Shown here one piece after another: positions 60,001 to 64,000 of a DNA stretch of 64,000 nucleotides. The stretch's first letter is position 1. Each line of letters opens with the position of its first letter. Position numbers: made by a program. The DNA lies in the NCBI RefSeq assembly GCF_055900595.2, contig NZ_CM148325.1; one strand, given 5' to 3'.

Positions 60001-63000
60001 ACATCGTGTATTTTTCGCCGGGCATGGACCCAGCACGCAACTTCTGTCTGTGCACCACCTTCACGTTTGGCACTGAACAGCCGATCGTAACCGCTGAATG
60101 CATCCGCCTGCAGGATACCCCGGAAGGGACGAAGGTGTTGTACCGGATGTTTTCCCTGCCTGTCTGGTGAGTAGGCGAACCAGACCGCCGGTGGCTCTGA
60201 TGAGCCCGCATTCCGGTCATCCCGGACATACGTCCAGATGCGTCCTGTTTTTGCCTTTTTTCTGCCCGGTGTCAGCACTTTTACCGGTGTGTCGTCAGTG
60301 TGAACCTTGCGGGTGTTCATCACGTAACGGTACAGGGCATCATTTAGCGGAGTCATTAACTGGCAGCACGCGTCAACCCAGTTGGAGATTAATGCACGGC
60401 TCAGTTCGGCACCCTGTCGGGCAAAGATTTCACTCTGACGATACAGTGGCAGGTGTTCGCAGTATTTTCCCGTTAACACGCGGGCAAGTAATCCGGAGCC
60501 CGCGATGCCGCGCGCTATCGGGCGGGACGGCGCTGGCGCTTCAACTATACAGTCACATTTTGTACAGGCTTTTTTTACCCGAACAGTGCGGATCACTTTC
60601 AGGGCGCTACTCACCAGTTCCAGCTGCTCAGCACTGACTTCACCCAGATAATCCAGCTCACTGCCACACTCCGGGCAACAACTTTCTTCAGGCTCCAGGC
60701 GGTGTATTTCACGGGGAAGATGTGCTGGTAACGGACGACGATGACGTGACTGTCGCAACTGGCGGGGAACCTGCGGGTCATCCTCACGCCCACTGTAACG
60801 ATCGCTTTCCTGTTCGCGTTGTTTCAGTTGGGCCTCAGCCTGTTCAACCTCACGCTGCAGTTTTTCAGAACGGGTACCGAACAGCATCCGGCGCAGTTTT
60901 TCTATCTGGGCCCTCAGATATTCTATTTCCCGCTCCTCCTCTTCGATCTTTTCTTCGGCACGTGCCAGTGCAGAGCGCAGGAAGGCCTCCGTCTCTTCAA
61001 CCAGACTCAGTTGCAGATCTCTCTGACGGAGGGCTTCAGCCTGCTCAGAGAGCAGCCTTTCCAGCTCAGTGATACGAATGAGGTATTTCCGACTCATGAC
61101 CGTTTTTATAATCCGGCCATGACATTTTTACAACATTGTCAGTGCGTTAAGACGGGATGTTTTTGGCTGACGCCAGTCCAGCTTATCGAGGAGCATTGCC
61201 AGCTGCGAGCGGGTAATGGATACCTTACCGTCACGCACCGCAGGCCAGATAAACAGGCCTTCCTCCAGGCGTTTGGTGAACAGGCACAGACCATCAGCAT
61301 CAGCCCAGAGGATTTTAATCATGTCACTCCGTCGGCCACGGAAGATGAACAGGTGACCGGAGAAGGGGTTCTCATCCAGCACATGTTGTACCTGTTCACC
61401 CAGACCGTTGAAGGATTTACGCATATCAGTAACGCCGGCAACCAGCGAGATTCGAGTGTCTGATGGGAGCGAGATCATCGCCCCCTCCCGGTCAGTTCAC
61501 GGATCAACACCGTGAGCAGCTCTGGTGAAGGATTTTCCAGCGTCATGTTACCGTGGCGGAACTCAACTTTACAGGAACTGGCACTGACTGTGCTTTGTGA
61601 AGGAGTGGATAAAAGCGGAGTAAGAGCCGCCATAGGCTCTTTCTGCTCATCAGGCGTTATCTCAACAGGTAATAATTCAACGCCAGCGTCAGAAGAGGTT
61701 GTTACCGGAAGACGCCGCGATATACGCCCTTCGTTCTGCCAGAGCCTGAGCCATTTGAACAGGAGGTTATCATTGATATCGTGTTCCCTGGCAATACGGG
61801 CAACAGAGGCTCCTAGTTGTGAAGCCAGTTTAACCATTTGAAGTTTAAACTCATTTGAAAATGTTCTGCGGGGTTCTGCGGATAATATTTTCTGTTCCAT
61901 AACAGGTGTCCACTAGTTGATGAAAAGGTGGGCACCTACGTTACCAATACTGGCTTAATGGCTACATACGGCGGTCAGTTTACGCTTACCATGTATCTGG
62001 CGAGTGAAGCTTTATGTCGTGTTCTGGCGTGTCCTGTGTTAGTTAGAACACGCCATCGATGGTCAGCAGGTTCATATTGCACCAGAGCGGATACAGCGTG
62101 GTGTTATGTCAGGGCTGCGCTGTTTACGTGAACACGTGGCGTACGGCCCCGCTTCCTGGCCCTGCTGGGCATGGATCACGGCGCGACAAAGGGGCGACTA
62201 CCTGGCAGCATGTGTCCAGCCGGTTCACAATCTGGTGAAGGTTCCTTACGCTCATGGGCCATACTGATAATTCACCAGGCCATCATTTCCAGAGGAAGAC
62301 GCCGTTTGCGTAGCGTGACAGTGTCGGACTCTTCAGGGCTGTGGGTAATCAGTTCCGGGGCAAGATAGTCGCAGAGGGTTACGCAGAGAATAGTAACTGG
62401 ACACTGGATCGATCAACCGATCCTTAACTGAGCGGCATGACAGCTTTCTGATGGTTTTTTTTTGATAATCTTCACATTGTGCTTCTTTTCTGTTGGATAA
62501 TCTTTGTACTTGATGGTGTACTAGGTATCCCATTATGCAGTTAAGTGAAGGTGATTAAAAATGCAATGTGAATTTAAAGGGGTCATATCAGCATTACCCA
62601 CTCCTTATGACCAATCCCAGCAAATCGATATGGAGAGTCTTCGAAAACTGATCCGTTTTAATATCGAACAAAATATTAAGGGATTGTATGTTGGAGGCTC
62701 TACTGGAGAAGCATTTCTTCAGAATGTTGCAGAGCGAGAAAAAATTCTTGAAACAGTAGCCGATGAATCAGATGGAAGACTGACACTTATAGCGCATGTG
62801 GGCGGAATCAGTACGGCAGAAAGCGAGGTACTTGCAAAAGCTGCAAAAAAATACGGATATCATGCTATATCTGCTGTTACTCCATTTTATTATCCTTTTT
62901 CATTTGAAGAGCATTGTATTCATTACAGGAAGATTATTGATTCTGCAGATGGACTTCCGATGGTAGTTTATAATATACCGGCTCTTAGCGGAGTGCGTTT

Positions 63001-64000
63001 TTCTTTAGATCAGATAAATGAGCTTGTCACAATACCCAGGGTTTGTGCATTAAAACAGACATCCGGTGATTTATTCCAGATGGAACAAATCAAAAGGAAT
63101 CATCCAGAGCTTGTGTTATATAATGGTTACGATGAAATATTTGCATCAGGGTTAATTGCAGGTGCAGATGGGGGAATCGGTAGTACATATAATATAATGG
63201 GGTGGCGTTATCTTGAAATATTTGAAGCAGTCAAAAACAATGATGTGATTAAGGCGAAGGAAATGCAAGTAGCCTGTAACCAGGTTATTGACACTCTTAT
63301 TCAGAGTGGTGTCCTGGCAGGTATAAAAACTCTTCTTTACTATATGGGGATTATAAATACTCCTGTATGCAGAAGTCCTTTTTCTCCGGTAAAGGAAAAG
63401 AATCTGGATGTATTATCAAAACTTGCAGAGCGACTGTTCGAAGAACATGACAGAAACAAAAAAATGAAAATAATCTGAATAATTGCAAGATTGTTATATA
63501 GGTGAAAATGAATGATAACACTGGCTGTTGATATAGGAGGAACGAAAATTTCAGCGGCGTTGATATCTGATGACGGTTCATTTTTGCTGAAAAAACAGAT
63601 ATCAACACCTCATGAAAGATGTCCTGACGAAATGACAGGGGCTTTACGTCTACTGGTTTCTGAAATGAAGGGAACAGCGGAGCGATTTGCAGTAGCATCA
63701 ACAGGGATTATTAATAATGGAGTATTGACAGCTCTGAATCCAGACAATCTTGGAGGGCTGAAAGAGTATCCTCTGAAAAATATAATGGAAGATATAACTG
63801 GTTTAAATGGAAGTGTGATAAATGATGCCCAGGCAGCCGCATGGGCAGAATATACAGTTTTGCCGAAAGAAATTTGTGATATGGTTTTTATAACCGTTTC
63901 TACGGGGGTTGGAGGGGGAATTGTAGTTAACAGAAAATTATTAACAGGTGTTTCTGGATTAGCCGGACATGTTGGGCATATATTGTCCGGAGTAACGGAT

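Follow-up and report, generated by a model that had tools for sequence, protein, structure and literature searches.

The core sialoregulon of Escherichia coli (nanR, nanATEK-yhcH/nanQ, nanCMS and nanXY) draws on the same enzyme, transporter, porin, mutarotase, esterase and regulator families as an accessory locus of the pheV genomic island (GI-pheV), which was named nan-9 by Tiwari, van der Putten et al. (2023, BMC Biol 21:76; PMC10088187). A 64,000-nucleotide stretch of E. coli DNA (NCBI RefSeq assembly GCF_055900595.2, contig NZ_CM148325.1; the window below, always at its full length) ends in a low-GC segment that is very probably the 5′ part of this known nan-9 locus, the nan module of GI-pheV. 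The locus is not new, having been published, and its rediscovery from raw sequence adds nothing to it. For its relatives in Proteus and on plasmids, a putative operator and CRP-like site, and unequal constraint among its genes, no mention was found in the accessible portions of PMC10088187 and PMC11537424.

The nan-9 locus was reported to be associated with the human host in a GWAS (genome-wide association analysis) of E. coli, as the strongest such locus, and to occur in 12% of 17,994 RefSeq genomes, with frequencies of 85% in sequence type (ST) 131, 68% in ST73 and 51% in ST69 (PMC10088187). IS682 was located upstream of nan-9 in 63 of 86 isolates. Deletion of nan-9 in an ST131 strain lengthened the lag on N-acetylneuraminic acid (Neu5Ac) by about 3 h and, on N-glycolylneuraminic acid (Neu5Gc), led to slower growth and a lower density. 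A ΔnanRATEK mutant did not grow on Neu5Ac, which the authors attributed to the missing nanE. The contribution of nan-9 to growth on Neu5Ac and Neu5Gc and its dependence on nanRATEK are established by this published genetics. No difference between the wild type and Δnan-9 was observed on Biolog arrays, and two "acetylxylan-esterase-like" genes were proposed to encode new sialate esterases (all PMC10088187). An 8,905-bp nan module was described as the most conserved module of GI-pheV, at 99.6–99.7% (PMC11537424; PLoS Genet 2024, e1011459). A literature search for later work on nan-9 returned only a review.

Compared with the core sialoregulon, nan-9 has the same catalytic residues in NanA and NanK and, likewise, a putative operator of GGTATA-like hexamers 9 bp apart. 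It differs in packing into one block seven functions that the core distributes over two of its three operons, in lacking nanE, nanQ and nanXY, and in carrying two extra α/β-hydrolase esterases. Its putative operator consists of two degenerate hexamers instead of three exact ones, and its GC content of 39%, accessory location and inability to support growth on Neu5Ac without the core genes are further differences. Accessory, horizontally acquired sialate O-acetylesterases that supplement the core nan genes are also found in enterohaemorrhagic E. coli (EHEC), as the prophage-encoded NanS-p proteins, whose genes resemble nanS9 weakly at the DNA level (about 75% over roughly 200 nt). The NanS-p proteins are, however, encoded by single prophage genes with extra domains and without an accompanying transporter, lyase, kinase or regulator. 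The pectin system of Dickeya offers an analogy, not membership: a KdgM-family porin admits an acetylated acidic sugar, which is then deacetylated by a cytoplasmic α/β-hydrolase, PaeX being a cytoplasmic protein. Unlike in that system, the substrate pathway of nan-9 is that of sialic acid and not of oligogalacturonide, and the two Est proteins score far below the PaeX cut-off. The nan-nag cluster of Vibrio pathogenicity island 2 (VPI-2) in Vibrio cholerae is another acquired cluster for sialic-acid catabolism, located on a pathogenicity island and linked to gut colonisation. VPI-2 contains a tripartite ATP-independent periplasmic (TRAP) transporter, nanE, nagA and a sialidase, and is self-sufficient, whereas nan-9 has a NanT of the major facilitator superfamily (MFS), contains neither sialidase nor nanE, and depends on core genes.

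The window contains the following features of the module, whose genes and proteins are written with the suffix 9:

62461–62476, plus strand: CRP-like site TTTGATAATCTTCACA, with 9 of 10 matches to TGTGA-N6-TCACA
62514–62530, plus strand: putative NanR9 operator, the 17-mer TGGTGTACTAGGTATCC, with two GGTATA-like hexamers 9 bp apart
62548–62554, plus strand: ribosome-binding site AAGGTGA, 6 nt 5′ of the nanA9 ATG, read from the sequence
62561–63478, plus strand: nanA9, N-acetylneuraminate lyase, complete, 305 aa (open reading frame (ORF), family models and structure alignment)
63500–63505, plus strand: ribosome-binding site AGGTGA, 6 nt 5′ of the nanK9 ATG
63512–64000, plus strand: nanK9, ROK-family N-acetylmannosamine kinase, first 163 of 291 codons, cut by the window end (Pfam and NCBIfam)

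By family models and structure alignment, NanA9 is classed as an N-acetylneuraminate lyase, a class I aldolase of the DHDPS/NAL family. It exceeds both curated NanA equivalog cut-offs (NF003164, 449.2 versus 281 bits; TIGR00683, 434.3 versus 382) and falls below that of the DapA model (170 versus 206). The protein aligns end to end and without gaps to the E. coli NanA chains in the PDB (E = 2e-134), is 66.2% identical to K-12 NanA over 296 residues (blastp), and is identical in amino-acid sequence to WP_001149834.1 of strain Nissle 1917. The functional residues of this lyase include the Schiff-base Lys165, Tyr137, the carboxylate-binding GSTGE motif (S47 and T48) and the sugar-binding D191, E192 and S208. 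NanA9 retains S47, T48, Y110, Y137, K165, T167, G189, D191, E192 and S208 (E. coli numbering). The sole pocket change among the residues checked is F252 to Leu (codon 252, window 63314–63316); Leu at this position is common to all four accessory NanAs (nan-9, two plasmid versions and Proteus faecis, described below), and may perhaps be a class-specific change of the substrate pocket.

The nanK9 gene starts 33 nt downstream of nanA9, and a terminator scan revealed no terminator-like site on the plus strand in the gap between them, the lone hit being on the minus strand inside nanA. The part of NanK9 in the window (162 translated residues) is identical to the Nissle protein and belongs to the ROK family by Pfam (2.6e-39). 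This fragment, half of the protein, has as its best match the N-acetylmannosamine kinase model NF003461, with 241 bits against a cut-off of 283. Full-length NanK9, as encoded in genomes whose sequence is identical, reaches 420 bits on this subfamily model (cut-off 283) and 385 on the equivalog model NF047821 (cut-off 450), and is placed by these scores in the NanK subfamily, under the equivalog level. Its identity to K-12 NanK is 53%. NanK proteins are characterized by a DxGxT ATP motif, a catalytic Asp105 and the zinc ligands H156, C166, C168 and C173. Within the window, NanK9 has D7, G9, G10, T11, K12, N104, D105, H153 and H156; the zinc cysteines C166, C168 and C173 lie just past the window end and are intact in full-length NanK9.

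The rest of the module was followed in three complete genomes, Nissle 1917, FDAARGOS_1259 and FDAARGOS_448. In all three the gene order is nanA, nanK, nanT, est1, nanC, nanM, est2, nanR (opposite strand) and nanS, and all nine ORFs are annotated as intact, with no pseudogene flag. The annotations downstream of nanK are an MFS transporter of 490 aa, an α/β hydrolase (Est1), a KdgM-family porin, an N-acetylneuraminate epimerase, a second α/β hydrolase (Est2), a divergently oriented NanR and a sialate O-acetylesterase, followed by an IS3-family element and iha. The module is about 9 kb in size, lacks nanE, and is flanked on both sides by insertion sequence (IS) elements, IS66-family on the left and IS3 on the right. 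Its GC content is about 39%, and in the window GC is 0.38 in 62444–64000 versus 0.555 in 58000–62443. A first-pass annotation had placed the nanA- and nanK-like genes at the edge of the island, which turned out to be wrong: they are at the edge of the window only, which stops inside the pheV island, and the island goes on with seven more nan genes, IS3 and iha. Its suggestion to look downstream for a transporter and an epimerase was borne out in genomes with the same DNA by a NanT-type transporter and a NanM epimerase/mutarotase, together with the porin, the regulator and three esterases.

Three of the downstream proteins exceed the cut-offs of curated sialic-acid models, with scores of 829 for NanT9 on the sialate:H+ symporter model (cut-off 604), 498 for NanM9 on the NanM model (cut-off 416) and 273 for NanR9 on the NanR model (cut-off 260). 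Identities to the K-12 proteins are 66% for NanA, 53% for NanK, 66% for NanT, 61% for NanC, 44% for NanM, 52% for NanR and 56% for NanS. The N-termini of NanC9 and NanM9 resemble signal peptides, basic residues being followed by a hydrophobic stretch; no signal peptide was found in the sequences of Est1, Est2 and NanS9. By megablast, 689 of 5,426 complete E. coli genomes contain window 62400–64000 (1.6 kb) as a single copy at ≥99% identity, and in 688 of them at least 80% of its length is matched. A 9-kb probe across all nine genes was at least 80% covered at ≥99% identity in 688 genomes, or 12.7% of the complete genomes, in agreement with the published frequency of nan-9. The published locus has the same nine genes in the same order, the same size of 8.9–9 kb, and an IS66-family element upstream (IS682 presumably being one) and an IS3-family element downstream. 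The host lineages also agree, Nissle 1917 and EC958/ST131 being among the genomes matched and ST131, ST73 and ST69 being named in the paper, where a "similarity" of 45–64% to the sialoregulon compares with the identity of 44–66% obtained here (PMC10088187).

The spacer between a transposase remnant and nanA9 is 118 nt long and has diverged among the relatives of the module except for two blocks, which all of them conserve. One is the CRP-like block, which nan-9, the two plasmid types and P. faecis, the four versions of the module, all keep at a constant distance from the operator, and which would be a putative activator site of the nanA9 promoter. The other, the 17-mer, is identical in nan-9 and both plasmid versions and matches at 16 of 17 positions in P. 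faecis. With up to three mismatches allowed, the window and the 41.6-kb Nissle locus contain one copy each, against 0.06–0.07 expected. It shares hexamer type and 9-bp spacing with the first two GGTATA repeats that a scripted search located upstream of K-12 nanA, repeats that are reported to be the NanR operator (Kalivoda et al.). NanR9 and core NanR are nearly identical in their winged-helix region, so that binding of the 17-mer by either regulator is plausible, and the 17-mer is a putative operator for NanR9 and possibly also for core NanR.

Est1 and Est2, which are 37% identical to each other, both pass the Pfam BD-FAE model (43.8 and 72.2 versus 26.8) and match solved carbohydrate esterases of the BD-FAE type at E = 1e-32 to 1e-35. 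Esterases of the PaeX/BD-FAE type are characterized by a Ser-Asp-His triad with a GxSxG elbow. All eight Est sequences retain the motifs PGGGY, GFSAGGH, DD and GGHGF, and the predicted fold and chemistry fit BD-FAE carbohydrate esterases. One Est2 homologue (44%), named as Kluyvera intermedia, was set aside, being located outside any nan context; under about 50% identity, the Est family is therefore not linked to nan genes.

Among 5.8 billion proteins, no relative of Est2 was found between 98% and 57% identity, and the next Est2 relatives all lie within the same nan gene set; a search of these proteins with Est2 and NanA9 for a near donor of nan-9 returned nothing between about 98–100% and 57–71% identity. 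Two apparent intermediates were rejected because they look like assembly or gene-calling artefacts: P0123 (87%), on a 3.9-kb metagenome scaffold beside IS66 tnpB, and P0122 (63%, 407 aa), at the core chromosomal site. When 100,044 species genomes were scanned with NanT9, the matches were Proteus faecis (90%), the sole non-E. coli species found, and one contig of a "Bacillota" metagenome-assembled genome (MAG), probably mis-binned, and no others. As a separate observation, that contig (L012; JAEYCB010000044.1, "Bacillota bacterium" MAG OH_HFB_105) carries a complete E. coli nan-9 at 99–100% amino-acid identity and is almost certainly a binning error in a public MAG.

The P. faecis version comprises eight genes in the order nanA-nanT-est1-nanC-nanM-est2-nanR(−)-nanS, without nanK. 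It adjoins a zapA metalloprotease gene and type I secretion genes, has a GC content of 33%, and encodes a NanT 90% identical to NanT9. A metagenome contig (L004, 339–8501) was identified as P. faecis from its 99.6–100% amino-acid identity to strain TJ1636 (L013, 8969–17131). A diverged form of the nan-9 gene set was also found on E. coli plasmids (L005, 10001–19020; L006; L007; L009, 10001–19058), with amino-acid identities to nan-9 from 41–57% (Est1, Est2, NanM and NanK) up to 83–90% (NanC and NanT). In a first plasmid lineage the block is located between F-type transfer genes (traI, traX and finO) and IncFII repA, in the order est2-nanR(−)-nanS-nanA-nanK-nanT-est1-nanC-nanM, a rotation of the nan-9 order; a second lineage is found in an O54:H45 strain. 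The plasmid version is present on 18 PLSDB plasmids (H73–H90), all from E. coli, and 17 of 21 matching records are predicted to be conjugative. The sources as listed in PLSDB are mouse or rodent (9), pig (3), pork (1), human (3) and not stated (2), and the mouse isolates may stem from a single study. Amino-acid identities among the four versions, and between them and the K-12 core proteins, are as follows:

NanT: 89–92% among the four versions; 65–66% to K-12 core
NanC: 78–87% among the four versions; 58–62% to K-12 core
NanR: 71–85% among the four versions; 47–50% to K-12 core
NanA: 69–82% among the four versions; 66–70% to K-12 core
NanS: 60–76% among the four versions; 55–58% to K-12 core
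NanM: 54–76% among the four versions; 42–48% to K-12 core
NanK: 54–68% among the four versions; 52–56% to K-12 core
Est2: 53–67% among the four versions; no core counterpart
Est1: 41–62% among the four versions; no core counterpart

Among the four versions, every gene has saturated synonymous sites (proportion of synonymous differences, pS, 0.61–0.80). The nonsynonymous rate (dN) ranges from 0.05–0.08 for NanT to 0.25–0.52 for Est1, and dN/dS is below 0.31 wherever the synonymous rate (dS) could be estimated, being not computable in 6 of 26 comparisons. This combination of saturated synonymous sites and low dN/dS across the genes indicates an old, co-inherited and selected unit. Judged by these comparisons, constraint is tight on its transport and regulatory parts, and the esterases evolve fast. 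The low GC content together with the Proteus relative points to a Morganellaceae-like source of nan-9.

Sialic acids from host glycans would enter through the KdgM-type porin NanC9, be converted to the transported anomer by NanM9, a predicted periplasmic mutarotase, and be imported by the MFS symporter NanT9. Ester groups would be removed by NanS9, of the SGNH/SASA type, and by Est1 and Est2, which resemble the PaeX-like α/β-hydrolase acetylesterases. NanA9 would then cleave Neu5Ac or Neu5Gc to pyruvate and N-acetylmannosamine (ManNAc) or N-glycolylmannosamine (ManNGc), and NanK9 would phosphorylate the hexosamine. Because the module lacks nanE, ManNAc-6-P would have to be handed on to core NanE, NagA and NagB, and nan-9 is for the same reason not self-sufficient. 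The nanA9 operon is probably activated by CRP, with the NanR encoded in the module acting as its repressor at the 17-bp two-hexamer operator. We infer the compartment of the esterases, their preference for O-acetylated substrates and the regulatory sites, whereas the gene identities, intact catalytic residues, foreign composition and non-core position are read directly from the sequence.

Apart from the position at the island edge, what the first-pass annotation had described has been confirmed, and it is well outside what chance would produce. It had noted a NanA-like protein colinear with core NanA yet divergent, as the gap-free alignment at 66.2% identity bears out, and a ROK-family NanK-like kinase after it, which is the ORF at 63512 with its Pfam match of 2.6e-39. 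It had also suggested a horizontally acquired second sialic-acid cluster, with which the low GC content, the IS flanks, the separate position and the tree described next agree. The Neu5Ac growth assay that it proposed is already in the literature, as the lag of Δnan-9 and the absence of growth of ΔnanRATEK (PMC10088187). Two kinds of evidence had been named there as able to overturn the suggestion, flanking sequence and phylogeny, and neither does. The genes would then belong to the core nanATEK locus, or to an allelic variant of it recombined into the island, for which colinearity with NanA and membership of the same family could speak. The core locus would show the order nanR, nanA, nanT, nanE and nanK at a conserved chromosomal site and at least 90% nucleotide identity to K-12, and this was not found here: nanK directly follows nanA, nanE and an upstream nanR are lacking, and the amino-acid identity is 66%. 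With K-12 nanA DNA as a megablast query, 5,409 of 5,426 complete genomes gave a match at a single place, which is not the window site, and no second match in these genomes, so that core nanA coexists with the accessory gene. The flanks are IS66-family elements and GI-pheV modules, and in a neighbor-joining tree of NanA, accessory sequences (nan-9, plasmid and Proteus) are split from core ones (E. coli, Salmonella, Klebsiella, Kluyvera, Leclercia and others) in 100 of 100 bootstraps. Identity with the core locus is refuted by order, identity, flanks, tree and coexistence, and its probability is practically nil. A decaying, non-functional remnant carried along with the island might be suspected from the surrounding IS elements and pseudogenes and from the missing nanE. 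That reading is highly improbable, and is largely refuted by the nine intact ORFs in three genomes and the 688 genomes matching the 9-kb probe, by dN/dS well under 1, by the published deletion phenotype (PMC10088187) and by the standing of the module as the most conserved in GI-pheV (PMC11537424).

The conservation pattern and the host spread suggest that nan-9 may be one branch of an old mobile family of eight or nine genes that imports esterified, e.g. oligo-O-acetylated, sialic acids and deacetylates them in the cytoplasm, the diverging esterases tuning each version to the sialic-acid modifications of its host, which would account for the human association of nan-9; this is a tentative proposal, put forward with little confidence. 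The members found are those of the P. faecis chromosome, of two mostly conjugative E. coli plasmid lineages and of GI-pheV in human extraintestinal pathogenic E. coli (ExPEC), and they share a distinct NanT/NanC/NanR subtype, a putative two-hexamer operator particular to them and three esterases evolving several times faster than the transport genes. Possible as well, though still rather unlikely, is plain redundancy or dosage, in which extra or faster-induced NanA, NanK and NanT shorten the Neu5Ac lag, no new substrates are gained, and the esterases overlap core NanS. This would fit the unchanged sugar-binding residues of NanA9 and, from PMC10088187, the sole published phenotypes (the lag of about 3 h on plain Neu5Ac and a modest Neu5Gc defect) and the lack of difference between wild type and mutant on Biolog arrays. 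However, in four anciently diverged versions all three esterases are retained under purifying selection, their catalytic motifs intact, and the versions keep a distinct subtype, with 78–92% identity in NanT/NanC and 71–85% in NanR among versions and only 47–66% to the core. Neither the retained esterases nor the distinct subtypes would be predicted by mere gene dosage. A substrate other than sialic acid, such as legionaminic or pseudaminic acid, KDN (2-keto-3-deoxynononic acid) or acetylated plant uronates, is very improbable. It could be argued for from the KdgM family of NanC9, from PaeX as the best named relative of Est1 and Est2, and from Leu in place of F252 in all accessory NanAs; yet core NanC is likewise of the KdgM family, the residues binding the carboxylate and glycerol tail of sialic acid are unchanged, and NanA9, NanK9 (on its subfamily model, under the equivalog cut-off), NanT9, NanM9 and NanR9 pass curated sialic-acid cut-offs. 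The deletion also affects growth on both Neu5Ac and Neu5Gc (PMC10088187).

Several observations count against the identification of the window end as nan-9, against the import and deacetylation of esterified sialic acids, or against the proposed control. Of the nine genes, the window covers no more than 1.3, the others being deduced from genomes that are 99.9–100% identical over the shared part, and the last 24 kb of the window (40000–64000) is at most 99.3% identical to any genome in the collection. The published phenotype of Δnan-9 is mild: on Neu5Ac the lag is longer, and on Neu5Gc the yield is slightly reduced (PMC10088187). Vimr's model puts K-12 NanS in the periplasm, which leaves more than one possible compartment for de-O-acetylation, and a role of the esterases on O-acetylated substrates is conjecture. 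The best NCBIfam match of Est1 and Est2, pectin acetylesterase PaeX, is reached with scores of 168 and 254, far under the cut-off of 550. A simple sigma-70 scan revealed no promoter-like hexamer pair upstream of nanA9, with no more hits than in shuffled sequence, and speaks neither for nor against a nanA9 promoter there. Both the 17-mer and the GGTATA-like hexamer are absent from the divergent nanR9–nanS9 spacer (L001, 27977–28075); a second copy of the 17-mer, sought in this gap and the whole Nissle locus, was not found.

The significance of nan-9 follows from its being the best conserved pheV-island module in pandemic ExPEC clones such as ST131, ST73 and ST69. If it is true that its three esterases open the heavily O-acetylated sialic acids of human colonic mucin, nan-9 would provide a metabolic basis for gut colonisation by ExPEC and would be a candidate decolonisation target. 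P. faecis and the mouse- and pig-associated plasmid relatives are natural comparison points, and the conserved operator is a further handle.

To the left of the module, the window contains the following mobile elements, recognized as ORFs unless stated otherwise:

58462–61900, minus strand: nested IS66-family elements, the left flank of the nan module
58462–60036, minus strand: second IS66 transposase, which interrupts tnpC
59997–61097, minus strand: IS66 tnpC, truncated by the second IS66 transposase
61128–61478, minus strand: IS66 tnpB
61475–61900, minus strand: IS66 tnpA
62046–62443, minus strand: degenerate transposase pseudogene, where the high-GC flank ends and the low-GC nan module starts

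The nested arrangement, one IS66 element inside another, is identical in the annotations of Nissle 1917, FDAARGOS_1259 and FDAARGOS_448. The pseudogene corresponds to an annotation at L001 19647–20044 (window offset +42399) as a frameshifted, partial "transposase domain-containing protein". Identity to Nissle 1917 is 99.9% over 62400–64000, with 2 nucleotide mismatches in the last 8 kb. To the left of the IS66 elements are flu (antigen 43, Ag43), yee modules and kps capsule genes; the best identity of the flu and yee part is 99.3–99.4%.

Other parts of the window are described for completeness. The capsule region (13000–27500) is 100% identical to ST69 strains, e.g. O15:H18 ST69. Within 14003–20549, a kpsM-like ABC-2 permease gene (14003–14839) and a kpsT-like ABC ATPase gene (19863–20549) enclose two genes, one for a family-2 glycosyltransferase and one for a CDP-glycerol glycerophosphotransferase of 1,248 aa; the genes at 20757–25968 have no Pfam match. 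An AbiEii-type toxin gene and a DUF4942 gene, followed by a yee-type module, occupy 37076–39121 and 39417–44451. By synteny with the annotated FDAARGOS_1259 locus, the yee-type module encodes the CbtA/YeeU toxin–antitoxin pair, YeeS (JAB domain), an antirestriction protein, a DUF932 protein and IrmA. The AbiEii, DUF4942 and yee genes are located between the kps genes and Ag43 (47164–50289) and are ordinary content of GI-pheV.

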